From positions 167,680-231,679 of the forward strand of contig CAVUOQ010000003.1 of the NCBI GenBank assembly GCA_963743175.1: a stretch of DNA of 64,000 nt. The letters are read 5' to 3'. Made by a program: the position numbers and the translations under genes. The notes below the pieces were generated by a model that worked only from the letters and a program-made list of their open reading frames with translations, had not been told where the DNA came from and searched no databases. Source of the stretch: an uncultured delta proteobacterium. Its GTDB lineage: Bacteria; Desulfobacterota; Syntrophia; Syntrophales; Fen-1087. Below, piece by piece: positions 13,241 to 60,958 of this stretch (the first letter of the stretch is position 1; each line of letters begins with the position of its first letter).

Positions 13241-14620
13241 TTATTCCCTTTCGAAAACGATGCCGTACTTCTCCAGCTTCCGCTCGAGAGTTGGTCTTGA
13301 TATCCCAAGAATATCGCACACTTCTCCTTTATTCAGGGTACTGTTATTTTTCAGAAAATTCCGGACATATTGTTCTTCCACCTCATCAAGGGTCAGGAGC
13401 TTTCCGGTCGTTTCTCTTCCGTTCGCCTGCTGCTCCGGATTTTCCTCCTCGCAGCGTTCATCGATCAGTTCGGGAAAATCACCCCGGACCAGAACCTGCC
13501 CTTTGGCGACCACCAGTGCCCGGACCAGGAGATTTTCCAGTTCACGGATGTTCCCGGGCCATCTGTATTTCTTAAATACTTCCATCATCTCATCAGACAC
13601 CCCGATAACCCGCTTATGGAGATCCTTGTTGATTTTGGCCAGCAGATAATCCACGAGGGGAGCGATGTCCTCGCGACGCTCCCGCAGGGGCGGAATCCGG
13701 ATGGAGACGATATTCAGGCGATAATAAAGATCATCCCTGAACTTGTTTTCCTTGACCATGTTTTTTAGGTCTTTATTGGTGGCGGCAATGATCCGCGCAT
13801 TGACCCGGACGCGGTCCTTGCCGCCCACCCGTTCGAATTCCATTTCCTGCAGAACCCTGAGAAGTTTTGCCTGGAGATTCAGGGACATCTCGCTGATTTC
13901 ATCGAGAAAGACGGTCCCGTAACGGGCGAGTTCAAACTTGCCCTGTTTGCGGCTGATGGCGCCCGTAAAGGATCCCTTTTCGTGACCAAACAATTCCGAC
14001 TCCAGCAAAGTCTCCACAATGGCAGAACAGTTTACGGCAATATAGGGTTCGTCCGGCGCTGTATTGTGATGAATGACCTTGGCAATCAGTTCCTTGCCGG
14101 TTCCGCTTTCGCCCTCGATCAATACGGTCGTCCGGCTCTGTGAAACAACGCCGATCGTCTTGAAAATCTCGCTCATTTCCCGACCGGAGCCGATAATGTC
14201 GCCGACCTTAAAGTGCCGGGACGGTTCCATGAGCAAACCGTCGATCTTCTTTTCCATCTCATACGTTTTGACGGCCTTTTTGATGGCGATATCCAGCTCA
14301 TCGACATTGATGGGTTTATGGATGTAGTCAAATGCGCCTTCTTTCATGGCCCTGATCGTTGAATCCATGTCATGGTGGGCGGTAATCATGATGACCTTGA
14401 TGTTTTCATTTTCTTCCCGCAAATCCTCCAGAACCGCAAAGCCGTCGATATCGGGCAAGCGGATGTCAAGAATGACCACCTCGGGCGTGTGCTGGATGAA
14501 CTTGTTCAAGCCCTCGGTGCCGGTATGGGCCGTCACCACGTCATAGCCTTCCTCGGTCAGGTAGAGTTCAAGCGTTTCAGAAATCGAGACATCATCATCG
14601 ATCACGAGAATCTTCGGCAT
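13241..14620 (-). CDS. sigma-54-dependent response regulator (NtrC family: REC + AAA+ + HTH)
   Basis: ILVIDDD..DIRLPDIDG receiver; GESGTGKE Walker A; GAFTGA loop (GSFTGA); RWPGNIRELEN; C-terminal Fis-type HTH. Confidence 0.9.
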   Translation of the reverse strand: MPKILVIDDDVSISETLELYLTEEGYDVVTAHTGTEGLNKFIQHTPEVVILDIRLPDIDGFAVLEDLREENENIKVIMITAHHDMDSTIRAMKEGAFDYIHKPINVDELDIAIKKAVKTYEMEKKIDGLLMEPSRHFKVGDIIGSGREMSEIFKTIGVVSQSRTTVLIEGESGTGKELIAKVIHHNTAPDEPYIAVNCSAIVETLLESELFGHEKGSFTGAISRKQGKFELARYGTVFLDEISEMSLNLQAKLLRVLQEMEFERVGGKDRVRVNARIIAATNKDLKNMVKENKFRDDLYYRLNIVSIRIPPLRERREDIAPLVDYLLAKINKDLHKRVIGVSDEMMEVFKKYRWPGNIRELENLLVRALVVAKGQVLVRGDFPELIDERCEEENPEQQANGRETTGKLLTLDEVEEQYVRNFLKNNSTLNKGEVCDILGISRPTLERKLEKYGIVFERE

Positions 14621-14624
14621 GCCG

Positions 14625-16871
14625 TTATCCTTCCTGATTAAGCGGGAATGTCACCATCACCCGGGTTCCTTCTGCTTTTTTGCTGCTGACTTCGATGCTT
14701 CCCCTGTGAAGATCAATGATCTTCTTGACCTGCGTCATCCCCAGGCCGGTTCCATATTTTTTCTTGGTGAAGAAGGGATTAAAAATATGGGGCATATCCG
14801 ACGCCTCGATCCCGCAGCCGTTATCTTCAACCGTGATTTGAAGCTGTGCCGGATCATTTCCCGTTCGCCGGGCCGTGGTTCGCAGGATGCCGTCCATCTC
14901 CATGGAATCCACGGCGTTCCGGTAAATGTTCAGAAAGGCCTGCTCCAGCATCGCTGAATCCACCTGCAGAAAAGGAAGCGAATCTTCAATCTCGGTGTGA
15001 ATGCGGATGTTCTTGTCCGTGACCAGTCTTTCCACCAGAGCCAGGGCATTCTCAACAATTCTTCGAATATCGGAGGGTTCCTTTTTGGGAACGGCGGGCT
15101 TGGCGTATATGAGCACGTCATTGACGAGCTCCCCCAGGTGTTCCACTTCCCGCTGAGCGATCCGGAAGCGCTTGAGATCATTTCCCTCGGGCTGCATGCG
15201 CTTTTCCAGAATCTGGAGGCTCATCTTGATGGATGACAGAGGGTTGCGCACCTCATGCGCGATCCCGGCTGACAACTGGCCGATGGCCGCCAGTTTTTCA
15301 CTCTCATAGAATTTTTTTTCAAGATCTTTGAACTCCGTTATATCTCGCTGGACAAAAACATAACGGCCGGTTCCCTCAATGGGCCGGGGAGTGATCAGCA
15401 GGCTTCTTTTCGACCCGTCTTTTTCCGTGGCTTCGATTTCAAACGGCTGATAGATTCCTTTTTTCACATCCTCCCAGACCGCCAGGGCCAATGTCCGATG
15501 TTCGGGGGCCACGAATTCCGTAAAAGGCTTCCCTTTGCTTTCTCTGAAAATGAAACCCTTTCCTTTTTGGAGATTACCGCTGATATAGTTGATGATGCCG
15601 TCGCTGCTGAGGTCAAACAGGGTGTCCGGCGAGCTGTCCACGATCGACCGCAGGTAATTATAGACCCCTTCAATCTCCTGCCTGAGTCGGACATTCTCCG
15701 AAAGTTCGTTCTGCAGGGTTTCGGCATACTCCTTGAGATTCGCGGCCATCTCCTCTTCCCGGCTCACGTCCTGAAGCGTTTCTATGGCCGCAATGATCGC
15801 CCCCTTCTCATCACGGATCGGCGCCGCCAGGAAATAGAGATACCGGCTCCGTCCGCCGAGCTTTTTATAATAATCCCTGGCCTCGTAGGCGCCTTCGACA
15901 ACGGCTGATTTCTGCACGCGCTTCTTGCCGTAATATTTTTCCAGTCCCTCGATATCATCATCCACGATCAGATCGGCAATGACCGGGCGTTTTTCCGGAT
16001 AAAAGGGCGCGTATTGTTTGTCCGTACCGATCATTTCTCCGGCCTGATACCCCACAAGTTCGGCGCAGGCTTTGTTCCAGAGCATGATACGGTGGTCTCT
16101 GCCGATGACAAACGTGGGGATCGGCGATCCCTCAATGACGCCCTCGATGGTCTTAATCAGCCGAATGTTTTTATCCAGTTCGCTCTTGAGGGTCTCCGTA
16201 TATCGCTTCAAATCATTTTCCAGTTCCGTTTGCCGCGTAACATCCTGGAGCGTTTCAATCGCAGCGCTGATCTCCCCTTTTTTATCGTAAATCGGCGCCG
16301 CCAGAAAATAAAGGTGCCGCCTGACCCCGCTGCGATTTTCGAAAAAATCGCTGGCATCGTAGGCTCCTTCAATCATTTTGGATTTTTGCACCCGCTTTTT
16401 GCCGTAATACTTTTCCAGTCCTTCGATATCGTTGTCCACAATCAGATCAGCAATAACCGGACGTTTCTCTTGATAAAAAGGTAAATATTGCTTGTCCGTG
16501 CCGATCATCTCCACCGCGTCATAACCCATGAGATCGGCGCAAGCCTTGTTCCAGAACATGATTTTGTGATCCCTGCCGATCACGAACGTCGGAATCGGCG
16601 ATCCCTCGATGATGCCCTCAATGGTACTCTTTTCACGGAAAAGCTTGTCCTGCCAGTTTTCACTCTCCCGGAAACGCCTCCACTCCCGGTTGATGCGGAT
16701 CTGCCGCCAACCCGCGTACGCGAGCGACAGGCTGGCAACGACCACCGCTAATACCAGCGCATCACGTTCCGCAATGTTCCTGTCATGGGAATGCGTGACA
16801 GTCAGGACGGCCAAAAGGATCAGGACGACGATCGATAATAACATCAACCAGGTGGAAGCCCTCATGCACAA
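14625..16871 (-). CDS. membrane PAS-domain sensor histidine kinase (2 TM, two tandem special PAS-like modules, one ordinary PAS, HisKA, HATPase)
   Basis: H-box SAGIAHEVRNPL; N/G boxes NAVDSM..DNGCGI..GTGLG. Two near-identical about 150-aa repeats IEG.IEGSPIPTFVIGRDH.IM.WNKACA.. Directly upstream of the NtrC-type gene. Confidence 0.9.
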   Translation of the reverse strand: MCMRASTWLMLLSIVVLILLAVLTVTHSHDRNIAERDALVLAVVVASLSLAYAGWRQIRINREWRRFRESENWQDKLFREKSTIEGIIEGSPIPTFVIGRDHKIMFWNKACADLMGYDAVEMIGTDKQYLPFYQEKRPVIADLIVDNDIEGLEKYYGKKRVQKSKMIEGAYDASDFFENRSGVRRHLYFLAAPIYDKKGEISAAIETLQDVTRQTELENDLKRYTETLKSELDKNIRLIKTIEGVIEGSPIPTFVIGRDHRIMLWNKACAELVGYQAGEMIGTDKQYAPFYPEKRPVIADLIVDDDIEGLEKYYGKKRVQKSAVVEGAYEARDYYKKLGGRSRYLYFLAAPIRDEKGAIIAAIETLQDVSREEEMAANLKEYAETLQNELSENVRLRQEIEGVYNYLRSIVDSSPDTLFDLSSDGIINYISGNLQKGKGFIFRESKGKPFTEFVAPEHRTLALAVWEDVKKGIYQPFEIEATEKDGSKRSLLITPRPIEGTGRYVFVQRDITEFKDLEKKFYESEKLAAIGQLSAGIAHEVRNPLSSIKMSLQILEKRMQPEGNDLKRFRIAQREVEHLGELVNDVLIYAKPAVPKKEPSDIRRIVENALALVERLVTDKNIRIHTEIEDSLPFLQVDSAMLEQAFLNIYRNAVDSMEMDGILRTTARRTGNDPAQLQITVEDNGCGIEASDMPHIFNPFFTKKKYGTGLGMTQVKKIIDLHRGSIEVSSKKAEGTRVMVTFPLNQEG

Positions 16872-16982
16872 CGCCTTTTTCTGCTCTTACTGCCGGTTTG
16901 ATCCATGCCCCTCCCGGTTCGCCTGTCCTGGCGAACAATTTGTTCTATTGAAAATGGGGATTTCACCCGAGCGATAAATGAG

Positions 16983-17165
16983 CTACTCTTGAAATTTGCC
17001 CCTGCGTTTCTTCATCTGATAACTCACAATGGCATAGAGGACATAGACGGAAAAGGCTGACGCCAGCGAAATCAGCAGGGTTGTTAACCCGCTTTCAATG
17101 CCGATGACCCGCTGACAGATCAGCCATACCACAAGATAGGTGATCGCCGTTAATATTTCCTGCAT
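16983..17165 (-). CDS. small hypothetical membrane protein (60 aa, 2 predicted TM helices)
   Basis: ORF only; hydrophobic helices and a basic C-terminus (KKRRGK). Lies just upstream of the kinase on the same strand. Confidence 0.4.
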   Translation of the reverse strand: MQEILTAITYLVVWLICQRVIGIESGLTTLLISLASAFSVYVLYAIVSYQMKKRRGKFQE

Positions 17166-17454
17166 TACTTAATCCCCTCTTTTCAAAAAGACGTTCGTCG
17201 CAAGCCGCGTATTTGATCACCCGACGCGAAATGCAGGGCGATACTAACGACCCCGCAAGAAAATTTCAATATAAAATATTTCATGGGCCTCTGATATGGG
17301 TAGTGTCATTTTACTTTTCGTTCAATTTACCCCGCTTGTTGAATAGGATGTTAAACGATATCAGCACCCATCGAGACAAAAATATTCTGCCTGTGAAGAA
17401 AATAAGCAAGCAGCTATCTGGTGTTAGCGCGATAACAGGCCAGAGTCAGGCAAG

Positions 17455-17470
17455 TGGCACATGTGTTGCA
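17455..17470 (+). promoter_or_regulatory. sigma-54 (-24/-12) promoter TGGCAC-N5-TTGCA
   Basis: Exact TGGCACatgtgTTGCA. GG at 17456-57 and GC at 17468-69 (12-nt offset). 104 nt upstream of the atpE-like start and adjacent to a divergent NtrC-type activator. Confidence 0.75.
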
Positions 17471-17573
17471 GATGCACCGCGCAAACCATGAAAAAATTCC
17501 TCTTTCCCGGGTGTGATTTTTGTGTTACGGGTAAGAGAGAAAAATTTAATCAAGCAGGAAAGGAGAAAGAAAG

Positions 17574-17951
17574 ATGTCAGGGAAATTTGGTAAAAAATTG
17601 TTAAAACTTCTTGTCGCAGCGGGAGTTTTACTGGTGTCATCACCCCTTGTTTACGCGGCTGAGGCACTTCCGGGAGCCGGTGAGTCCTATACAAAGGCTC
17701 TTTTTGCCGTGGGAGCGATGCTTGCAGCGGGCTTCGCCATCGGCGTCGGGGCCGTGGGAGCCGGTTTGGGAATCGGAACAGCGGCAAGCGGTGCATGTGC
17801 GGCAGTCGGCAGAAACCCCGGGGTACAGGGAAAGATCATGACGGTCATGCTGGTCGGCATGGCCATGGCGGAATCCGTCGCTATCTATGCGCTGGTTGTC
17901 TCGTTGATCCTCCTGTATGCAAACCCCTACATGCGTTATTTTTTGGGTTAA
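17574..17951 (+). CDS. atpE: F-type ATP synthase subunit c-like protein with signal-peptide-like N-terminal extension (orphan)
   Basis: GAVGAGLGIGTAASGA helix-1 Gly motif, GRNPG loop, helix-2 MAMAESVAIYALVVSLILLYANP with carboxylate. RBS AGGAAAGGAG. Confidence 0.8.
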   Translation: MSGKFGKKLLKLLVAAGVLLVSSPLVYAAEALPGAGESYTKALFAVGAMLAAGFAIGVGAVGAGLGIGTAASGACAAVGRNPGVQGKIMTVMLVGMAMAESVAIYALVVSLILLYANPYMRYFLG

Positions 17952-18001
17952 TTTGAATCAAATATTAACTTCAAAATAACAACAGTTAGGGGGAAACGCG
18001 C

Positions 18002-19318
18002 ATGTCAGAAACTAATAAAGGTAAGCAGTTATTCACTGTAGCGAGAGTCTTCTTCCTGCTTATCGTAATCCCCTTATCACTGATGGCTATTCTAATCGCC
18101 AACGGCATTTTTAAATTAGGGGTTACAGTCAAAGAACGAGCAGTGACTGCTCTTGACCAGAAATCTCAGGAAGAAATCAAAGTTCGTGCCATGAACACGG
18201 CGGATGAGGTCACTAATTTCCTCACGGAACGCAAGAAGGATATCCTGATTGCCACGATTATTCCGGCATCTGAACCCGTGTTCAGGAACTTCGTCAATGA
18301 AAACAGGAAAAACATCTGGGTCAAGGAAAAGGACAAAATCCGTCAGATCTCGGCGCCTCTTTACACCGAGATCTCCCTCATTGATAAAAATGGCAATGAG
18401 AGGATCAAGGTCTCCAACGGAAAGATCGTCCCCAGTGCGAAACTGGTCAATGTCAGCGCCCCGGCCAATACAACTTATAAAAACGAAGACTATTTTGCCA
18501 GGACAAGAAAATTGAACAAGGGAGAGGTCTATGTCTCCCCGGTCACCGGCTGGTATGTGAACCGGACGGAGTTCGAAAAAGGCAAGCGGTTTGCGGGCAT
18601 TGTCCGATTCGCCACGCCCCTGTTCGGACCAGAGGGATTTGCCGGGATCATCAGCCTGGCCCTTGATTACAGTCACCTTGCCGGTTATACGGACCATATT
18701 ATTCCCACGCAGGCAGCGTCTGTTTTTGAAGCGGATGCTGCAACGGGAAATTATGCCTACATGGTCGACCACGAAGGGTATGTCATTTCTCATCCTAGCG
18801 ACTACCATATCAGGGGGCTTCGTGCCAACGGAATGCCGGTCCCCGCACTCACGCAGACAAATTCGGCAGAACTGGCCAAAAAAGGCGAAGAGGTCCTGAA
18901 TCTGAATCTCCTTTCCTTCATGGATCCGAACCTGCCGGAAGTGGCCAGGGATGCGGCAACTGGAAAATCAGGCATTAAAATGTACAAGTTTGCGGGACAT
19001 ACAAAATTTGTCGCCTATGCGCCCATCAGATTCTTTACAAAAGACGCGCCTGAGCCGGGAGGATTCGGATGGATCGGCATGGGTGTTGATGTGGAGAAAT
19101 TCAACGAACTGGCTATCTCGACAACGAAAAACATCGATAAAGAAGCAAAGGCGTGGACAACGACGATCATTCTGATTCTGACGATCTCCGTTATCATTCT
19201 GTTCCTCATCCTGGCCCTTCTGGCCCGCGGAATCACCCGTTCCATCGAAGCGGAGGTTCCGAAGGGTTCCGAAGGGGAAGGTTATTTCAACGAGGACGAA
19301 GAAGAAGACGATAAATAA
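18002..19318 (+). CDS. double-Cache (dCache-like) periplasmic sensor domain membrane protein without output domain
   Basis: N-terminal TM, about 350-aa extracytoplasmic region with Cache-like pattern (..YF...R.L..GEVYVSPV.., ..AGIISLALDYSHL.., ..YAYMVDHEGYVISHP..), second TM, then only an acidic tail ..YFNEDEEEDDK. Confidence 0.65.
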   Translation: MSETNKGKQLFTVARVFFLLIVIPLSLMAILIANGIFKLGVTVKERAVTALDQKSQEEIKVRAMNTADEVTNFLTERKKDILIATIIPASEPVFRNFVNENRKNIWVKEKDKIRQISAPLYTEISLIDKNGNERIKVSNGKIVPSAKLVNVSAPANTTYKNEDYFARTRKLNKGEVYVSPVTGWYVNRTEFEKGKRFAGIVRFATPLFGPEGFAGIISLALDYSHLAGYTDHIIPTQAASVFEADAATGNYAYMVDHEGYVISHPSDYHIRGLRANGMPVPALTQTNSAELAKKGEEVLNLNLLSFMDPNLPEVARDAATGKSGIKMYKFAGHTKFVAYAPIRFFTKDAPEPGGFGWIGMGVDVEKFNELAISTTKNIDKEAKAWTTTIILILTISVIILFLILALLARGITRSIEAEVPKGSEGEGYFNEDEEEDDK

Positions 19319-19327
19319 ATCTGCATA

Positions 19328-19358
19328 GGCCGGAAGCTTCGACTTCCGGCCTATTTTT
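19328..19358 (+). terminator. rho-independent terminator after the Cache gene
   Basis: GGCCGGAAG-cttcga-CTTCCGGCC followed by TATTTTTA. Confidence 0.75.
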
Positions 19359-19412
19359 ATTCCATCGACCTGCCTATCCACCCCAGCCTATCCTTCACGA
19401 AACGAGAACTTT

Positions 19413-19565
19413 GTATAACCGATGAGAAATGGTTTGCAAGCGGCGAATCAAATTTTTCCGCCTTGCGAGAGATGACGTTAACGGTTTGCCGGATATCGTG
19501 ATTATGTCTGGTCGTCCTCTTGGAGGAAAAGATATTTGAACTGCGGCGAAGCCATTTTCCAAAGG
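19413..19565 (+). repeat. family-B interspersed repeat, copy 2
   Basis: GTATAACCGATGAGAAATGGTTTGCAAGCGGCGAATCAAA...GCGGCGAAGCCATTTTCCAAAGG, aligned to copy 1. Confidence 0.85.
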
Positions 19566-19703
19566 TCACGAGCCGCCTTGCGCGCTGTGCGAAGATTTTG
19601 TCACGATCTTTCCGTTTGACTTGCCTGGACCGATTTGATAGGAAACTGACGCAATTCCAAACGACATTGCCCGTCACAGCAAATCATGCAGGAGGAGATA
19701 TTC

Positions 19704-52203: not shown

Positions 52204-52411
52204 CCTCCAATAAAACGTCTACATTGAAGCGGGGTTTTGCCATCCCTTTCAAGGGATGGCAAAATCTTTGCGCGCCCTCTATCGGATTATTATGAAAATT
52301 GCAACAGGTTTTCATCCTGTCGTCAATATTGTCCCTATAATCAGCACGTAACAGTCTGTGCGCGTCGTGAACAGCTGCCCGGTCTGGTTTATTGTCTGCC
52401 CCGGTGTAAAA

Positions 52412-53464
52412 TCAAGCGATGGTCACATCCTTACAGCGGTAAACATCCTGGACGGCGTTCAGAATTTCGACGCCTTCCGCCATAGGCCTCTGAAATGCCT
52501 TGCGGCCGGTAATCAGCCCCATGCCTCCGGCCCGCTTGTTAATGACCGCCGTGCGGACCGCCTCCGCCAGGTCGTTTGCCCCTTCCGACGCCCCGCCCGA
52601 ATTGATCAAGCCGGTGCGGCCCATGTAACAGTTCATCACCTGATAGCGGGTCAGATCGATGGGGTGCGCGGTGGTCAACTCCGTATAGACTTTCGGATTC
52701 GTCTTGCTGAACTTGACGGACGTGAAGCCGCCGTTGCAATCGGGCTGCTTCTGCTTGACAATATCGGCCTGAATCGTCACGGCCAGGTGATTGGCCTGTC
52801 CGGTCAGGTCGGCGGATGTATGGTAATCGACACCGTCTTTTTTGAAAGCGTTGTTGCGCAGGTATGCCCAGAGGATCGTCACCATCCCCAGGTCGTGCGC
52901 CATTTCAAAGGCCTCCGTGATTTCCTGGATCTGCCGGCTGCTTCCCTCCGATCCGTAGTAAATCGTGGCCCCGATCGCGACCGCGCCCATATCAAAGGCC
53001 TGCTTGACGCTGGCGAAAAGAATCTGGTCGTGCCGTTCGGGATAAACCAGCAGGTCATTGTGATTGATTTTGACGATGAAAGGGATCCGGTGCGCATATT
53101 TTCTGGCCACCATGCCGAGAGCCCCCAGCGTGGATGCCACGCCGCTGCATCCGCCTTCCACGGCAAGTTTCACGATGTTTTCCGGATCGAAATAGATGGG
53201 ATTCGGCGCAAAAGACGCCGCGGCGCTGTGTTCGATTCCCTGATCCACCGGCAGAATGGACAGGTAGCCCGTACCCGCCAGGCGACCGTGATCAAACAGG
53301 ATCTGCATGTTGCGCAAAACCTGGATAGGCCGGTCCGAGGGCGCCATGATCCGTTCGATAAAATCCGGCCCCGGAAGATGAAGTTGATTACGGGGAAAGA
53401 TACATTTGTGCTGCAGCAACGCCTCCGCGTCCTTTCCCAAAAGGGTTCTGATCTTATTCAGCAT
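52412..53464 (-). CDS. fbaB: class I fructose-bisphosphate aldolase (FbaB/DhnA type)
   Basis: Collinear with remembered E. coli FbaB over 350 aa: LLGKDA..LLQH.C, LRNMQ.L...[72 protein letters not shown]. Confidence 0.9.
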
Positions 53465-53700
53465 AGCCGATACACTCCTCTCTGTTCATTTTTATTAAAA
53501 ACCGGTCAGGGGCGGCCGAAAACGGCGTCATCTTAAACTTCTTTGGCTTTCTGTTCAACTTTTTTTATTGACAACACACACGGCATAATTGATTGACTTT
53601 TTCTCCATTGTTCATGTACGCTGCACGTGGAAACGGAAGGACCTTCAAAAGATATCAGACGCTCAACAGGATGTCAGGGTTATAAAAGGAGGGTGTATTT

Positions 53701-55095
53701 ATGAAAGGAAAAACTGTCAAGAAGAGTGATACGGGCAGGAGCGGCAAAAAAGTGATAAAGAAAATAAATTTGCATGAAAGCCCCCACGAATCGGAGCATC
53801 TGCTGCAAAGCATCGTTCAGGGCTTCTCCATCCCCGCTTTTGTGATCGGAAGGGACCACAAGGTGATCTACTGGAACAGGGCACTGGAGCAACTGAGCAA
53901 AATCCCGATGAGTGAGGTGGTGGGCACCAACAAGCAATGGCGGGCCTTCTATGCCGAGGCAAGACCCTGCATGGCGGATCTTCTGATCGATGGGGCTTCA
54001 GAGCGGATTCCAAAATGGTATGAAGGGAAATACACCAAATCCGATCTGCTGGAAGAGGCCTATGAGGCGACGGATTTTTTCCCTGATCTCGGGGAGGGCG
54101 GCAAATGGCTTCGCTTTACGGCTGCGGCCGTCAGGGATTCAGGAGGCAAGATCATAGGCGCCGTTGAGACACTGGAAGACATCACGGAACACAAACGTGC
54201 CGAAGAGTCGCGACGGGAAAGCGAGCAGCGGCTATACAGCGTCATAGAGGGATCGCCCTTTCCGACATTTGTCATCGGACTCGATCACAAGGTGATTTAC
54301 TGGAACCGTGCCCTGGAAGAATTAAGCAGAATTCCGGCGGAAGAGGTGATCGGAACCCGTCAGCACTGGCGCGCTTTTTATGCCAACGAACGGCCCTGCA
54401 TGGCTGATCTTCTCGTGGATCAATCCCTCGAAACCATCCCGGAATGGTACAGGGGCGTTTCTAAATCAAAGCTTCTTGATGAGACCTTCGAAGCCGAGGG
54501 ATTTTTTCCCGATCTGGGTGAAAAAGGGCGCTGGCTCTGGTTCACCGCAGCGACAATCCGTAGTTCCCAGGGAGCCCTGGTTGGAGCTATCGAGACATTG
54601 GGAGATTTTACCGAGCGCAAATATGCGGAACAAAGGCTGATCGAGAGCGAAAAAAGGCTCAACAGCATTTTTGAGGGGTTTTCCATCCCTGCTTTTGTGA
54701 TCGGGAAGGACCACAAGGTCATTCTCTGGAACCGGGCGCTGGAAAAATTGAGCAAAATACCGGCCGAAGAAATGATCGGGACCAATAAGCACTGGCAGGC
54801 CTTCTACGCAAAAGAGAGGCCCTGTATGGCCGATCTGCTTGTGGACAGCGCCGTAAAGAACATTTCCAGGTGGTATTCGGGAAAATATCGGAAATTCGAT
54901 GTCGCCGAAGATGCCTTCGAAGCAACGGATTTCTTCCCTGAATTGGGGAAAAAAGGGCGCTGGCTTCGTTTTACGGCTGCCGTCATCCGGGATAGCCAGG
55001 GAGAACTCGTTGGGGCCGTTGAGACCCTCGAAGACATCACGGATCAAAAATCGGCTGAGGCCGAACTGAAGGGAAGTGCGCTGAAGAAATATTAA
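53701..55095 (+). CDS. stand-alone protein made of three tandem PAS-like modules (no output domain)
   Basis: Three about 142-aa repeats, each ..G(F/S)(S/P)(I/F)P(A/T)FVIG.DHKVI.WNRALE.LS.IP.(E)E(V/M)(V/I)GT..(Q/H)W.AFYA.(E/A)RPCMADLL(V/I)D....I..WY.G......L.E..(Y/F)EA..FFP.LG..G.WL.FTAA..R.S.G...GA(V/I)ETL.D(I/F)T..K.AE. Confidence 0.85.
   Translation: MKGKTVKKSDTGRSGKKVIKKINLHESPHESEHLLQSIVQGFSIPAFVIGRDHKVIYWNRALEQLSKIPMSEVVGTNKQWRAFYAEARPCMADLLIDGASERIPKWYEGKYTKSDLLEEAYEATDFFPDLGEGGKWLRFTAAAVRDSGGKIIGAVETLEDITEHKRAEESRRESEQRLYSVIEGSPFPTFVIGLDHKVIYWNRALEELSRIPAEEVIGTRQHWRAFYANERPCMADLLVDQSLETIPEWYRGVSKSKLLDETFEAEGFFPDLGEKGRWLWFTAATIRSSQGALVGAIETLGDFTERKYAEQRLIESEKRLNSIFEGFSIPAFVIGKDHKVILWNRALEKLSKIPAEEMIGTNKHWQAFYAKERPCMADLLVDSAVKNISRWYSGKYRKFDVAEDAFEATDFFPELGKKGRWLRFTAAVIRDSQGELVGAVETLEDITDQKSAEAELKGSALKKY
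53800..55066 (+). repeat. intragenic tandem repeat, 3 x about 426 bp (PAS-like modules)
   Basis: DNA-level similarity is visible, e.g. TTCCATCCCCGCTTTTGTGATCGGAAGGGACCACAAGGTGAT vs TTCCATCCCTGCTTTTGTGATCGGGAAGGACCACAAGGTCAT. Confidence 0.8.
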
Positions 55096-55724: not shown

Positions 55725-57086
55725 TCAATGCAGCGTTCCCGCCCAGCGCGGATCATGCCGCATGCGGGCGACTCTGCGCTGGAGCTGGCGGACCGTAATG
55801 CCGAGGACGCGGGCGGCCTCCTTGCGGTCGCCCGGGGTATGGCTCAGAACATAGGCCACATGGTCATCATCATTTTCCTTCAGCGTACATAACTGTCGCA
55901 TGGAATGAGAGGACGGCAGCGGCGGCACACCCAGATGCTGCGGATAGATAAGGTCTGAGTCGGTCAGCAGGACTGCATTTTCCACAATCTGAGACAATTC
56001 GCGGATATTCCCCGGATAATCCCGGCGACACAGAGTATCCATGGCCTCAGGATGAAACCCCCTGATATTTCTATTGTGGCGCTCGGACGCTTTCGACAGG
56101 AAGTGAGACGCCAGCAGGGAGATATCGCCCATCCGCTCCCGCAGGGGAGGCAGGTGGATGTGGACCGATTTCAGACGGTACAGGAGATCCAGCCGGAAGC
56201 TCCCTTCCTGACAGGCGATGTCGATGTTTCTGTTGGAGGCGGAAACGACACGGACATCGACCCGGATCGGCTTGGTCAAACCGAGCGGGAAAAAGGTTTT
56301 TTCTTCCAGCACGCGCAGCAGCTTCGCCTGCAGACCGACCGGCAGCTCCCCGATTTCATCCAGAAACAGAGTCCCTCCGTCCGCCTGCTCAAAATAGCCC
56401 CGATAAGGAGATTCCGCGCCCGTAAAGGCCCCTTTGGCATGACCGAAAAACTGACTTTCAAACATCGTAACCGGAATGGCCGAAACGTTCACGGCAACGA
56501 AAGGTCCTTTCGGCGCGGGGCCTGCCCGGTGAATCCCCCTGGCAACCAGTTCCTTGCCGGTTCCCGATTCGCCGGTAATCATGACAGGATTGCCGCTTCC
56601 GGCCATGACCTGGGCATAGGAAAGCAGAGACAGCATCCGGGGGCACTGGGTCATAATTTCGGAGAAGGCATCCGGTACGTCCAAATGGGCATCCCGGGCT
56701 GAAACCGACAGCCCGATGAGGAGCCCCCGGCGTTCATAAGCACGTTCAATGGCCCGGAAAAGGAGGTCGTTGTCCACCGGTTTGACGAGATAATCATAAG
56801 CGCCCAGCCGGATGGCCTTCACGGTGGTGGGGATGTCGTCGACGGCGGTGAGAATGATAAATTCCGTATGGGGACGGTAAGGTTTTGCGGATTCAAGCAC
56901 CTGTAACCCATCTACATCCGGCATGAGCAGATCGAGAAGAACGATGTCAAATTCGATTTCCCTGATTTTCCGAATGGCGTCCCTGCCATTATCACAGACC
57001 TCCACGTTCCGGATGCCCCGCCATCTCAGGATTCGCCTGACCGAACTTAAAGAGATTTCTTCGTCATCGACGATGAGGATTTTCAT
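55725..57086 (-). CDS. sigma-54-dependent response regulator (NtrC family)
   Basis: MKILIVDDEE..LDLLMPDVDG; GESGTGKE; GAFTGA; YPGNIRELS; C-terminal HTH. ATGA overlap with the upstream kinase. Confidence 0.9.
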   Translation of the reverse strand: MKILIVDDEEISLSSVRRILRWRGIRNVEVCDNGRDAIRKIREIEFDIVLLDLLMPDVDGLQVLESAKPYRPHTEFIILTAVDDIPTTVKAIRLGAYDYLVKPVDNDLLFRAIERAYERRGLLIGLSVSARDAHLDVPDAFSEIMTQCPRMLSLLSYAQVMAGSGNPVMITGESGTGKELVARGIHRAGPAPKGPFVAVNVSAIPVTMFESQFFGHAKGAFTGAESPYRGYFEQADGGTLFLDEIGELPVGLQAKLLRVLEEKTFFPLGLTKPIRVDVRVVSASNRNIDIACQEGSFRLDLLYRLKSVHIHLPPLRERMGDISLLASHFLSKASERHNRNIRGFHPEAMDTLCRRDYPGNIRELSQIVENAVLLTDSDLIYPQHLGVPPLPSSHSMRQLCTLKENDDDHVAYVLSHTPGDRKEAARVLGITVRQLQRRVARMRHDPRWAGTLH

Positions 57087-59266
57087 AATCTCTGCCTTCC
57101 CACGTCACGAATAAAGTTTTTTAATTGCAACAGGCTAAAAGGTTTCTTCAGAAGGAGGTCCGCCTTGGGGGCCGTCTTGCCGGACTGCCCATAAACAGCA
57201 GATTCAGAGGAATAAAGAATCACGGTCAGCAGGGGGAATCGTTCCCGGATCCTTTTCAGGAGGTCCCACCCGTCCATCCCCGGGAGTTTGATCTCCGAAA
57301 TCACCATATCAACTTCCGGATAATCTTCCAGATAAGTGATGATGTCTTCAGGGGTATCATCCAGACCCGGGGACCAGCCCACGGCATCGATGAAATTCAT
57401 CTTCAGTTCATTCAAAAAGGCATGGTCATGATCAATGCAGAACATCGTCGGACGGATATCAATGCGGGTTTGGCCGTCTACGGGCAAGAATATGGAGAAC
57501 CGGCTTCCCAATCCCGGTCGGGATAGAACCCCGATCAGGCCCTGATGATCCTTGATCAGGCCGTAAGAGATGGAAAGTCCCAGGCCGGTCCCCTCCTTGT
57601 CCCTGCGCGTGGAAAAGAAGGGTTCAAAAATATGATCCAGCACGTCCCTTTCCATGCCCGTGCCGTTATCCTCGATCTCGATCAGGATCGCCTTGAGCCG
57701 TTTAAGGTATCTTGCGGTAATAATGATTCGCCCTTTCCGGTCGGCGGGAATGGCCTGGTGGGCGTTGATCAGCAGATTGGCAATCACCTGTTCGATTTTC
57801 TGAAAGTGTCCGTGAATGGGCGGCAGATTGCTGTCAACATAACGATCGATACGGGATACCGTTTTCCGGATTTGAGCGCCCACAAGGATCAGCACACCCT
57901 GGATGACTTCACTGATCTGAACGGGTTTCTTCTGAGCCGATTCATCCGATCGGGCAAATTCTTTCAGGCCCGAAACAACGCGTTTGATCCGCTGGGCGGC
58001 AATCTTGAACTCCTCAATGATTTCCTTCATATTCATGCAGACTTCTACATAGCGGATTCCCTTATCGCCCCAGTCGGGATGGGAGGCGCCGTCACTGGCA
58101 AGAATCGGCTCAATGGCTTTCCACATTTCTTCCAGCAGGGGAATATTGTAGGCAATAAAACTGACGGGGTTGTTGATCTCATGGGCGACGCCGGCCACAA
58201 CCTCACCCAGTGCCGTCAATTTATGGGATTGAATCATCTGCTGAAGGCGGAGTTCTCCCTCCTGTCGGATGCGGCGGTCCTCCGTGACATCCCGCCATGC
58301 GCCGACCATGTATTTTCGGGACCGATTGTCGGTGCGAATCAAGCGCCGGGAATCCGAAAACCATCGATAGGACCCGTCGGCAGCCTGGAAACGGTATTCA
58401 CTCTGATAAGCCCCTTTGCGGACGACCGTTTTCAGTTCCGCGAGGATCCTTTCGCGATCATCGGGATGGATGTGCTCCTGCCAGAAGAATGGATTTTCGA
58501 TAAACTGCTGCGGGGTGTACCCGGTCATTTCGCTGATGGTATGGCTGATGAAGGTGGTCTTGAAGTGCTTGTCGGCGCTGCAGGTGTAAGAAACAATCGG
58601 CAGTGATTTCAAAATGAGCGAAAGCTGTTCCGTCGTTTCCCTGAGCGCCTTTTCCGCCCGTTCGCGCTCCCGGAGTTCCGCCTGCAGCGCTTTGTTTGCC
58701 CGGGCCAATTCCCGTGTCCGCTCCCGGACCTTGGATTCCAGATCTCCATAGGCCTTCAACAGGGCGGCTTCCGCCTGCTTTGCCTCGGTGATGTCTTCCA
58801 GGGTTTCGACGGCGCCGACCAGCGCACCTTTAGCATTCCGGATGACAGCCGCCGTGAAGCGCAGCCATCTTCCCCTGTCGCCGAGGTCCGGGAAGAAATC
58901 CGTCGCCTCGTAAGCCTCATCGATCAGTGTGGATTTTGTGAACTTTCCTGCATACCAGCGGAGAATCGCCTCCGGGGATTCATCCACCAGCAGATCGGCC
59001 ATGCAGGGTCGCTCGGCGCCGTAGAATGCCCGCCAGTGTTGACGGGTTCCGATCACCTCTTCGGCCCTGATCCCACTGAGTTCCGCCAGCGCCCTGTTCC
59101 AATAGATAACCTTGCGGTCTCTTCCAATCACAAAAGCCGGAATGGGCGAACTCCCGATGACGCTGTGCAGATACTGCTCGCCATTGCTGATAAGTTCATC
59201 CGCCCACTTACATTCGTATTCTGCTGTTTCGTGGAGTCGATCCTGATGGTGATGTTTCTTTATCAT
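57083..59266 (-). CDS. cytoplasmic PAS sensor histidine kinase with C-terminal degenerate receiver domain
   Basis: One special PAS-like module (SPIPAFVIGRDRKVIYWNRALAELS..), a second PAS, H-box VAGVAHEINNP, HATPase (DNGTGM..GTGLGLS), then a REC-like domain with ISEIKLPGMDG. Confidence 0.9.
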   Translation of the reverse strand: MIKKHHHQDRLHETAEYECKWADELISNGEQYLHSVIGSSPIPAFVIGRDRKVIYWNRALAELSGIRAEEVIGTRQHWRAFYGAERPCMADLLVDESPEAILRWYAGKFTKSTLIDEAYEATDFFPDLGDRGRWLRFTAAVIRNAKGALVGAVETLEDITEAKQAEAALLKAYGDLESKVRERTRELARANKALQAELRERERAEKALRETTEQLSLILKSLPIVSYTCSADKHFKTTFISHTISEMTGYTPQQFIENPFFWQEHIHPDDRERILAELKTVVRKGAYQSEYRFQAADGSYRWFSDSRRLIRTDNRSRKYMVGAWRDVTEDRRIRQEGELRLQQMIQSHKLTALGEVVAGVAHEINNPVSFIAYNIPLLEEMWKAIEPILASDGASHPDWGDKGIRYVEVCMNMKEIIEEFKIAAQRIKRVVSGLKEFARSDESAQKKPVQISEVIQGVLILVGAQIRKTVSRIDRYVDSNLPPIHGHFQKIEQVIANLLINAHQAIPADRKGRIIITARYLKRLKAILIEIEDNGTGMERDVLDHIFEPFFSTRRDKEGTGLGLSISYGLIKDHQGLIGVLSRPGLGSRFSIFLPVDGQTRIDIRPTMFCIDHDHAFLNELKMNFIDAVGWSPGLDDTPEDIITYLEDYPEVDMVISEIKLPGMDGWDLLKRIRERFPLLTVILYSSESAVYGQSGKTAPKADLLLKKPFSLLQLKNFIRDVGRQRL

Positions 59267-59424: not shown

Positions 59425-60915
59425 TCAAGTCAGCAGAAGATTCACGACGTAAACGAACAACCCCATGACAGCCGAATAGACCGCGCAGTACAGAAACGTC
59501 CTGCGGACGATAGACCGTTCCTCCGATTGCAGCCCCACCGTGGCGGCCGCGACCGAGATGCTCTGCGGCGAGATCATTTTCCCCGCCGTCGCCCCCGACG
59601 TGTTGGAGGCGACGATCCAGGAAACGTCGGCGCCGATCTGCTTTGCCGTTTCCCGCTGGAGCTCCCCGAGCAGAATGTTGGAAGCGGTGTCGCTTCCCGT
59701 CACGAATGTTCCGATAGCGCCCAAACCAGGGGCAAGCAGGGGATAGGCCTTCCCGGAGACCGTCGAAAGCAGGGTTGCCGTGGATGCCACCATTCCCGAA
59801 TAGCCCATGACCTTCGCCAGGGCCACGATGTTGATGATGGTCCAGGCGCTCCACTTGATCCGGTCCAGCGACTGGAAGAAAACCCGACCGACCGTCTTCG
59901 GCGAGAGTCCCTGCAAGAGCGATCCGGCGATCGCCGAGACAAACAGAAGCGTTCCCGGCGTGGTGAGCCAGTCGACCCTCACGGCGCTTGTGCCCACGGG
60001 CACGGCAAAGACAAAGGGGGCGCGCTTCAGAAAATCGAGCGGCAGGAGGCGCGTGATCACGACGAAGGCAAGCAGGATAATGTAAGATGCCAGCGCCAGG
60101 AGGAGTTTCCTCTGATCGACATCCGCTTCCCATTTCCCGCTGACGGATTTGTAGAGAATATACAGGGCAAGCGACCCAAGAGAGCCCATGACGGCCACGA
60201 GTTCGGGGCCGAGGAAGAAGGCCGTGAGGGTTTGGATGCCGCCGAAGAGGACTCCGAGGACGAGAACCTCCGGGAGGGAAGCGCCAAGGCCTTTTGGCCC
60301 TCCGTTGCTGATCAGGGCAATCGCCACGGGAACCAGGATGCTGAAGGGCAAAAGCTGCAAGGCCACATTGTGCGTCAGCGTCACGAGATCAAGCCCGGTG
60401 ATCTGGGCGAGCACAATGACGGGAATGCCAAGGGCGCCGAAGGCCACAGGCACCGAGTTGGCCACCAGCGCGATTACGGCGGCGGTGATGGGTGCAAAGC
60501 CCATCGTGATAAGGACCGCTGTGGGGATCGCGACGGCCGTCCCGAAGCCCGCCACGCCCTCCAGAAACCCCCCGAAACAGTAAGCGATGATGACGGCCTG
60601 GATATTGCGATCCGGCGAGAGCGTCACCAGAGTGGCCCGGACCGTTTCCATGGCGCCCGACTCGACTCCGGCAAAATAAGTAAAGACGGCGGCAAGAATG
60701 ACCCAGATGATGGGGATCAGGGCGATAAGGCCGCCCTCGAGCACCGATGAGATGAGCCGAGCGGAGGCCATCTTCCAGACAAAACAGGCCAGGAGCGCCG
60801 TGACAATCAGGGCCGCCAGCGTGACAGAGTGAGACTTGAATTTCGTGGCCGTGAGTCCCGTAAAAAGAAGGATCAGAGGAATCGTGCTGATAAGACCGAA
60901 TATCAGGCTGTCCAT
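59425..60915 (-). CDS. lctP: L-lactate permease family (LctP) transporter
   Basis: Polytopic, about 496 aa; ..FGGFLEG.AGFG...AI.. and ..GSDT.SN.L.G.LQ.. LctP signatures. Start at MDSLIFG after GGAGAT. Confidence 0.8.
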   Translation of the reverse strand: MDSLIFGLISTIPLILLFTGLTATKFKSHSVTLAALIVTALLACFVWKMASARLISSVLEGGLIALIPIIWVILAAVFTYFAGVESGAMETVRATLVTLSPDRNIQAVIIAYCFGGFLEGVAGFGTAVAIPTAVLITMGFAPITAAVIALVANSVPVAFGALGIPVIVLAQITGLDLVTLTHNVALQLLPFSILVPVAIALISNGGPKGLGASLPEVLVLGVLFGGIQTLTAFFLGPELVAVMGSLGSLALYILYKSVSGKWEADVDQRKLLLALASYIILLAFVVITRLLPLDFLKRAPFVFAVPVGTSAVRVDWLTTPGTLLFVSAIAGSLLQGLSPKTVGRVFFQSLDRIKWSAWTIINIVALAKVMGYSGMVASTATLLSTVSGKAYPLLAPGLGAIGTFVTGSDTASNILLGELQRETAKQIGADVSWIVASNTSGATAGKMISPQSISVAAATVGLQSEERSIVRRTFLYCAVYSAVMGLFVYVVNLLLT

Positions 60916-60958
60916 CTCTATCTCCGTCCTGTTTGAATAAGAGTGAGAGCGCCTCATT

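Follow-up and report, generated by a model that had tools for sequence, protein, structure and literature searches.

A putative sigma-54-inducible ATP synthase c-subunit isoform linked to a Cache-type membrane protein in the Syntrophales

Background

Why should a gene for the rotor c-subunit of ATP synthase stand apart from the other genes of that enzyme, behind a sigma-54 promoter of its own and immediately ahead of a gene for a Cache-type membrane protein? The question is raised by a stretch of 64,000 nucleotides (the window) from an uncultured delta proteobacterium of the Syntrophales (Fen-1087; GenBank assembly GCA_963743175.1, contig CAVUOQ010000003.1, positions 167,680 to 231,679), in which this c-subunit gene, here termed E1, occupies positions 17574 to 17951. 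A first, sequence-only reading of the window had singled out the arrangement. The comparative genomics analysis presented here leads us to consider it fairly probable, on present evidence, that E1 encodes a rotor isoform inducible through a two-component system and sigma-54 and co-transcribed with a dedicated Cache membrane protein. The features on which this view depends are the following.

17455-17470, plus strand: sigma-54 -24/-12 promoter TGGCAC-N5-TTGCA (TGGCACATGTGTTGCA), matching the consensus TGGCAC-N5-TTGCW at 11 of 11 positions
17557-17566, plus strand: ribosome-binding site GGAAAGGAGA, near-invariant in upstream alignments
17574-17951, plus strand: E1, F-type ATP synthase c-subunit paralog of 125 aa (PF00137, TIGR01260, neighbour-joining tree)
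18002-19318, plus strand: Cache gene, encoding 438 aa with a first transmembrane helix (TM1), a dCache_1-like ectodomain of about 348 aa, a second helix (TM2) and a 30-aa acidic tail (Pfam dCache_1)
19325-19354, plus strand: intrinsic terminator with a 12-bp stem, 7 GC pairs and a T-run, ending the E1-Cache transcript

The c-subunit gene

The product of E1 scores above threshold against both the Pfam family PF00137 (ATP-synt_C; 62.9 bits, cut-off 24) and the NCBIfam family TIGR01260 (46.9 bits, cut-off 43.95), in agreement with the sequence-only reading, which had recognized a c-subunit-like frame by its glycine-rich first helix, its RNP loop and its helix-2 carboxylate. In the mature protein these are the GxGxGxG motif (GAVGAGLGIG), the loop (GRNPG) and the essential Glu in MAESV of helix 2. 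All three align column for column with the c-subunits of E. coli, I. tartaricus, A. woodii and Spirulina, and E1 is free of gaps across the functional motifs of the solved c-rings 4BEM, 2WIE and 1YCE. Over aligned residues 72-120 its core is 69% identical to the c-subunit encoded next to atpB in Desulfopila (locus L045) and, as judged from these alignments, it is that of a wholly ordinary H+-type F-ATPase c-subunit.

The first 29 codons of E1 (17574-17660) form a signal-peptide-like extension composed of MSGKFGKK, a hydrophobic stretch and VYA/AE. Such an extension had been anticipated, although at about 35 aa it had been taken as somewhat longer. In form it is a type-I signal peptide, the cleavage of which is predicted, and this form fits the location of the N-terminus of c on the outer face of the membrane. 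Nor is the extension an argument against a role in ATP synthase, since the c-subunit encoded next to atpB in a Thermoanaerobaculia genome (L046) bears a comparable one and the c-subunit of Aquifex aeolicus reportedly has a cleaved signal peptide.

Na+-binding c-subunits have Gln or Glu at the helix-1 position of I. tartaricus Gln32, a Na+ ligand, and Ser/Thr-Thr past the essential Glu. In E1, Ile67 lies at the former position, and E-S-V stands in place of E-S-T. A Na+-type c-subunit was considered for E1 and rejected, because its aligned sequence is without the Na+-binding motif. The Ile at this position fits the conclusion of Dibrova et al. that the Syntrophus F-ATPase is H+-specific (PMC2881411). 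Two GenBank records of metagenome-assembled genomes (MAGs) label the Syntrophus ortholog of E1 as 'ATP synthase subunit c, sodium ion specific', a label that is probably wrong, since this ortholog also lacks the motif. The c-subunit of the N-ATPase (TIGR03322) was likewise rejected for E1, on account of a score of 68.1 bits against a cut-off of 130.85 and the absence of atp neighbours.

The 64-kb window bears out the sequence-only reading on the other atp genes: hallmark motifs of AtpA, AtpD and AtpB were not found there, nor was a second c-subunit, and no atpB lies within 10 kb of E1 at any Syntrophales locus. The description of E1 as an orphan thus stands as regards its detachment from other atp genes, but the condition is less strange than it had seemed, for a scattering of F0 genes is already known from the order (PMC5606693). 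From its sequence features we infer that E1 enters the F1Fo rotor.

Promoter and upstream region

The sigma-54 element, with GG at 17456-17457 and GC at 17468-17469, is the sole 11/11 match within the 64 kb and precedes the ATG of E1 by 103 nt. The sequence-only reading had therefore been correct in calling it exact and in placing it a short distance upstream of 17574, its count of 104 nt being off by one. A single match of this kind is not significant by itself, given that, with one mismatch allowed, chance alone would supply 1.85 sites, and it is because of its conservation, rather than of the match, that we take the promoter to be real. Of the 108 E1 orthologs for which 200 nt or more of upstream sequence was available, 102 have a site that agrees with the consensus at 9 or more of its 11 positions and has GG and GC intact, 83-132 nt before the start codon (median 121). 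In the alignment, this element and the ribosome-binding site are the best-conserved intergenic blocks. The transcription start is predicted near 17481, about 12 nt past the GC.

Two further elements lie between the promoter and the divergent genes.

17321-17343: TTCAA-N13-TTGAA palindrome, conserved in its arms and variable between them, a candidate upstream activator site
17241-17269, minus strand: sigma-70-like promoter TTGAAA, 17 nt, TAGTAT, detected by consensus scan and having conserved hexamers

In about 45 of 103 loci a fixed distance of 134 (about +/-3) nt separates the palindrome from the -24 element downstream. Both this distance and the form of the palindrome are as expected of a site for an NtrC-type activator, making it a candidate for this role. 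It is also present at two loci, L009 and L024, that have no adjacent regulator pair. The hexamers of the sigma-70-like promoter coincide with the conserved intergenic blocks GATACTA and TTTCAATAT, and this promoter probably drives the divergent operon, which comprises a 60-aa gene, a kinase gene and an activator gene. The upstream region of Syntrophus buswellii is recognizable yet degraded, its promoter reading TGGTGC-N5-TTGCT and one arm of its palindrome being mutated.

Shuffled sequences fold as well as the 99-nt leader does (z=0.38), and an Rfam scan of 16900-19700 found nothing; hence, there is no sign of a riboswitch or attenuator. An open reading frame (ORF) of 92 codons at 17213-17491 was rejected as a gene, its conservation being patchy, element-like and typical of non-coding DNA. 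Elsewhere in the window, a 9/11 sigma-54-like site, TGGCAAAATCTTTGCG, occupies the intergenic positions 52257-52272 upstream of a plus-strand ORF (52358-53536), and the remaining 9/11 sites all fall inside long ORFs.

A second c-subunit paralog

A second c-subunit gene, E2, lies convergent to the Cache gene in 11 metagenome loci. Used as a query, E2 returned 1257 matches, among them proteins of Smithella, Smithellaceae and Syntrophales, and a neighbour-joining tree places an E1 clade, which holds the window and S. buswellii genes, apart from the E2 clade. At about 125 aa the two proteins are alike in length, and each has the signal-peptide-like extension together with a (D/S)YTK motif, which indicates that their common ancestor was already extended. 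Across a core of 88 positions, the clades have 36 invariant residues in common and 17 fixed differences. Among these differences, with the E1 residues given first, are GAxGAG against GTxGTG in the helix-1 packing motif, Ile against Met at the position matching I. tartaricus Gln32, and RNPGV against RNPEA in the cytoplasmic loop facing F1.

The genomic setting of E2 differs between lineages. At L128, L129, L132, L133 and L137, loci that represent Smithella and no fewer than two further lineages, it is four genes (about 4.7 kb) away from a cluster of atpZ, atpI and atpB that is itself without a c gene. At others (L130, L131, L134, L136) it has the E1 operon, or the two-component system of that operon, as its neighbour. 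The two paralogs share a contig at these last four loci, as they do at the 11 metagenome loci. For a bin of Ca. Smithella cisternae, published annotation lists atpB as 4_23 and, uncommented, 'subunit C' as both 4_31 and 437_33 (PMC5606693, Table S9). By synteny the latter gene is E1, since the gltD gene 437_38 is found five genes away, as in Smithella loci, and 4_31, near atpB, is E2. The lineages in which, on the evidence of these sequences, one genome has both paralogs include Smithella as well as those of L130, L134 and L136.

The sigma-54 element seen upstream of E1 in 102 of 108 loci was found upstream of E2 in none of 13, and this points to differential regulation of the two genes. The sequence-only reading had named, as fatal to its idea, the case of E1 being the only copy and belonging to a split atp operon; the existence of E2 in Syntrophales speaks against that case. 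It had also advanced the idea of an alternative c-subunit, and that idea is favoured by the finding that atpZ-atpI-atpB has E2, not E1, in its vicinity.

The Cache gene and the operon

The Cache gene begins 50 nt past the stop codon of E1. Neither a terminator nor a sigma-70-like site was found between the two genes and a strong terminator follows the second, as the sequence-only reading had noticed, so that E1 and the Cache gene appear to form an operon. The encoded protein matches dCache_1 (PF02743) with E=5.4e-9 and 36.4 bits, under the Pfam cut-off of 45, and the same domain is matched by all 34 aligned homologues (best E=2.3e-13). A profile search of their alignment against the PDB returned nothing meaningful. 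Also borne out is the earlier description of a Cache-like ectodomain held between two membrane helices and devoid of any transmitter domain: none was detected in the protein or its homologues, either by Pfam or in the sequence past TM2, where there is only the acidic tail, short and acidic in all homologues.

Despite an overall identity among homologues of 61-97%, TM1 (VFFLLIVIPLSLMAILIANG) is near-invariant, which suggests a specific helix-helix contact inside the membrane. The best 120 matches of the Cache protein are all at least 68% identical to it, and the family appears, from these searches, to be confined to the Syntrophales. In one Smithellaceae genome (GCA_053578255.1; L003, 10429-11743) the gene is present as two overlapping ORFs of 299 and 155 aa, which may reflect a frameshift or a pseudogene.

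Divergent regulator genes

The operon transcribed away from E1 contains three genes, in which the ORFs and Pfam domains confirm the small two-helix protein, PAS kinase and NtrC-type activator previously proposed for this region.

16983-17165, minus strand: 60-aa protein with two transmembrane helices, first gene of the divergent operon (tblastn synteny)
14625-16871, minus strand: membrane histidine kinase with two transmembrane helices, a duplicated PAS, a third PAS, HisKA and HATPase_c (Pfam)
13241-14620, minus strand: NtrC-type sigma-54 activator with REC, AAA+ Sigma54_activat and Fis-type HTH domains (Pfam)

The last of these (Sigma54_activat 224.9 bits, Response_reg 105.3, HTH_8 24.6) is the candidate activator of the promoter at 17455. 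Its gene and that of the kinase adjoin the E1 operon in most Syntrophales loci, and tblastn places the 60-aa gene, whose product has no match to any Pfam or NCBIfam family, upstream of the kinase in most of them. The window kinase has no periplasmic domain between its two transmembrane helices. Its Smithellaceae ortholog (L003, 6692-9238), with which it shares 57% identity, has instead a periplasmic dCache_1 and a single copy of the PAS that is duplicated in the window; at L136 the ortholog reaches 1090 aa. By sequence, then, an orthologous kinase is seen to swap its sensor module between lineages. The notion that the Cache protein is a detached sensor domain of the kinase was rejected, as it has no detectable similarity to the dCache of the Smithellaceae enzyme.

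Distribution across genomes and metagenomes

Homologues of E1 and of the Cache protein come from the Syntrophales (Syntrophus, Smithella, Smithellaceae and many MAGs). A search of species-representative genomes with the c-subunit yielded 44 loci, 42 of them from Syntrophales or uncultured deltaproteobacterial genomes, the other two being the outgroups L045 (Desulfopila) and L046 (Thermoanaerobaculia). The usual order in Syntrophales has the genes for EngB, NtrC, the histidine kinase and the 60-aa protein on one strand, and those for the c-subunit, the Cache protein and often ppsA on the other. Several loci depart from it. In the complete genome of S. buswellii DM-2 (L042) and in a related MAG (L043), E1 stands between nfnAB-like genes and ppsA, with neither Cache gene nor two-component system beside it. 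Loci L025 and L041 have kept the NtrC gene and lost the kinase, 60-aa and Cache genes, and L009, L013 and L024 have kept E1 and the Cache gene with no regulator pair within 10 kb.

Alignment of the Cache protein against metagenomes added 80 loci, of which 75 had enough upstream sequence, and at all 75 E1 is directly upstream of the Cache gene, at a gap of 36-79 nt. Together with the genome loci, most of which carry both genes, this upholds the expectation that the pair would be co-conserved in relatives. The linkage is strict in one direction: the Cache gene is always behind E1, whereas E1 is not always followed by a Cache gene. Since E1 of S. buswellii is without both Cache gene and two-component system, E1 does not need the Cache protein.

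Two observations concern the wider neighbourhoods. The nfnAB-like genes (gltD-like plus DHODB_Fe-S_bind) that flank E1 in L042 (7295-9545) flank atpB in L137 (1018-4275), and Smithella loci have a gltD-like gene at about 8 kb on the upstream side of E1; the scattered atp pieces may once have resided in one shared neighbourhood. In addition, a small AtpZ-like gene (PF09527, ATPase_gene1) is found beside EngB in L130 (18661-18897), L134 (10486-10710) and L136 (18679-18915), where it adjoins the E1/E2 neighbourhood, apart from atpI-atpB.

Proposed mechanism and alternative explanations

The scheme that we favour can be outlined as follows. The PAS kinase would sense a signal, probably cytoplasmic, and then phosphorylate the NtrC-type activator, which, once bound to the palindrome 134 nt ahead of the -24 element, would open the sigma-54 promoter at 17455. 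A single transcript with a leader of about 92 nt would yield both E1 and the Cache protein. Once processed, E1 would enter the F1Fo rotor, either replacing E2 or adding to it, and the rotor would thereby be adjusted in amount or composition under the sensed condition. The Cache protein would be an accessory of the operon, feeding an extracytoplasmic signal back to the kinase or else assisting or modulating the E1 ring through its invariant TM1.

Several points weigh against this scheme. The case for isoforms is one of comparative genomics, and the tie between the Cache protein and the c-ring is known from the genes, not from a physical link. An AlphaFold2 model of the Cache protein, computed from the 34-sequence alignment, attained a predicted local distance difference test (pLDDT) of 43.9 and a predicted TM-score (pTM) of 0.38, values too low for the model to be of use. 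The fixed differences between E1 and E2 spare the carboxylate, and they do not clearly foretell how large a ring would be or which ion it would bind. The occurrence of E1 without Cache protein and kinase in S. buswellii, L025 and L041 makes the module dispensable for E1 function. Lastly, if some lineages, such as that of the window or the genus Syntrophus, carry E1 alone, E1 would simply be their housekeeping subunit.

What the Cache protein does is a question apart, and the weight that we give to either answer is not to be added to those of the other explanations. It is quite conceivable, if short of probable, that this protein serves the kinase as an accessory sensor, closing a feedback loop, and is functionally unrelated to the c-subunit, the shared transcript meaning only that both are targets of the same regulator; the alternative is a partner of the ring. 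Output-less Cache proteins would require a partner for signalling, the window kinase is without a periplasmic sensor domain, and the kinase is absent from all four Cache-less loci with sequence past E1 (L025, L041, L042, L043), the activator gene remaining in L025 and L041. The Smithellaceae kinase, however, has a periplasmic dCache_1 of its own and yet the separate Cache gene is still kept there, the two domains being without detectable similarity. Moreover, L009, L013 and L024 maintain the Cache gene with E1 and no kinase within 10 kb, and in the 75 metagenome loci the Cache gene is never apart from E1.

The main rival explanation of the locus, which we hold to be rather unlikely, is that E1 is the main housekeeping c-subunit of a single F1Fo, moved away from atpB by rearrangement. 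Its sigma-54 control would then be routine, E2 minor or redundant, and the Cache protein and two-component system would tune only its level. The high conservation of E1 over the 44 genome loci, 42 of them Syntrophales or deltaproteobacterial by name, would agree with this, as would its position alone beside ppsA in S. buswellii, like any ordinary gene. Dispersed F0 genes are on record in Smithella (PMC5606693), and in Geobacter rpoN is essential and governs many core functions (PMC2817479). Nevertheless, E2 is also widespread, as its 1257 matches indicate, and conserved, and it is E2 that has been kept near atpZ-atpI-atpB in at least three lineages. The unequal distribution of the sigma-54 element between the two paralogs also argues for differential regulation and not for routine use.

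The favoured reading of E1 as an inducible isoform can be carried further, into what we regard as a doubtful extension of it. Here, the Syntrophales would switch c isoforms to alter the rotor itself, in ring size and so in H+/ATP ratio, or in preferred direction, with E1 induced via the PAS kinase, the NtrC-type activator and sigma-54, and with the Cache protein acting as an isoform-specific assembly or gating partner docking by TM1. If true, the isoform switch would amount to a signal-controlled bioenergetic gear shift at the thermodynamic limit.

The RNP loop of c contacts the central stalk of F1. The sequence-only reading had also raised a sensory or ion-conducting module independent of ATP synthase, for which no support was found: that E1 forms a c-ring-like oligomer outside the enzyme and joins the Cache protein in a membrane module for sensing or for ligand-gated ion conduction is very improbable, for although E1 is detached from other atp genes and strictly paired with a ligand-binding-type ectodomain protein with an invariant TM1, it retains every feature of rotary function, the RNP loop included, resembles the atpB-adjacent Desulfopila c over its core (69% identity, residues 72-120), persists without the Cache gene in Syntrophus and shares its architecture with E2, which lies near atpB.

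Comparison with known systems

Compared with canonical AtpE proteins (PF00137, TIGR01260), as represented by that of Desulfopila, E1 has the same two-helix hairpin with GxGxGxG and RNP loop, the same A-E-S-x-A-I-Y with the essential Glu and the same C-terminal LLYANPY. It differs in its detachment from atpB, its sigma-54 promoter, the Cache gene that follows and the existence of a paralog, as well as in its N-terminal extension, the Desulfopila protein having none and E1 being about 42 aa longer at that end. The signal-peptide c-subunit of L046 has, like E1, a positive and hydrophobic N-terminal segment with an Ala-x-Ala-like site before helix 1. Its gene comes directly after atpB, whereas both Syntrophales paralogs are extended and neither is adjacent to atpB.

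Enzymes served, or possibly served, by more than one c-type gene are known from Acetobacterium woodii, Desulfovibrio magneticus and Acidithiobacillus, and the Syntrophales resemble them in this respect. The c1 and c2 chains of the A. woodii c1/c2/c3 hybrid rotor (PDB 4BEM) are among the closest solved relatives of E1. In A. woodii c1, however, two hairpins are fused (182 aa, matched in two stretches), whereas E1 and E2 are single hairpins. The A. woodii c genes lie inside the atp operon; the Syntrophales paralogs, in contrast, are unlinked to the operon, and only E1 is under apparent sigma-54/two-component control with a Cache partner. Duplications of c, among them those of D. magneticus and Acidithiobacillus, have been described as sporadic, and split atp loci have been reported, with c and b genes (0C/0B) apart in delta-proteobacteria and a and c genes (0A/0C) apart in epsilon-proteobacteria (Koumandou and Kossida, PMC4154653). 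Syntrophus aciditrophicus possesses a second F-type ATPase, an N-ATPase, with its own c-subunit (PMC2881411), but E1 lies outside any operon of the atpDCQRBEFAG type.

As in NtrB/NtrC systems driving sigma-54 promoters, the kinase and activator genes are divergent, the promoter is of the GG-N10-GC form and a palindrome precedes it; the locus differs from them in that the target is an ATP synthase rotor gene. Two large surveys of sigma-54 regulons (PMC4641369, PMC12316311) do not mention ATP synthase genes, and in the literature searched we found no description of a c-subunit gene under sigma-54/two-component control or paired with a Cache gene. Split atp loci and rotor rings of mixed c-subunits are thus already known, and what is new is a c gene under sigma-54/two-component control with a Cache partner, order-wide. 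E1 would add an ATP synthase gene to the sigma-54 regulon, and the strict tie of an order-specific, output-less Cache family to a rotor gene suggests a partner of the F0 sector or of its regulator, of a kind that we did not see described in the literature searched.

For syntrophs such as Syntrophus and Smithella, the energy gained per reaction is worth a fraction of an ATP, and they have to run their ATP synthase both forwards and backwards, the latter for reverse electron transport. Two c isoforms, one of them controlled by a two-component system and sigma-54, would offer a testable handle on the tuning of ion-to-ATP ratios in these organisms.

Against cluster representatives, the top matches of E1 are P0256, P0257 and P0275, proteins of 400-1139 aa with 5 to 15 tandem c hairpins. 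The window also contains a second set of regulators, made up of a stand-alone triple-PAS protein (53701-55095, plus strand), an NtrC-type activator (55725-57086, minus strand) and a hybrid PAS kinase with a C-terminal receiver (57083-59266, minus strand). The products of 53701-55095 and 57083-59266 both have the PAS motif 'IPAFVIG', which reads 'IPTFVIG' in the kinase encoded at 14625-16871. A lactate permease gene (59425-60957) adjoins this second set.

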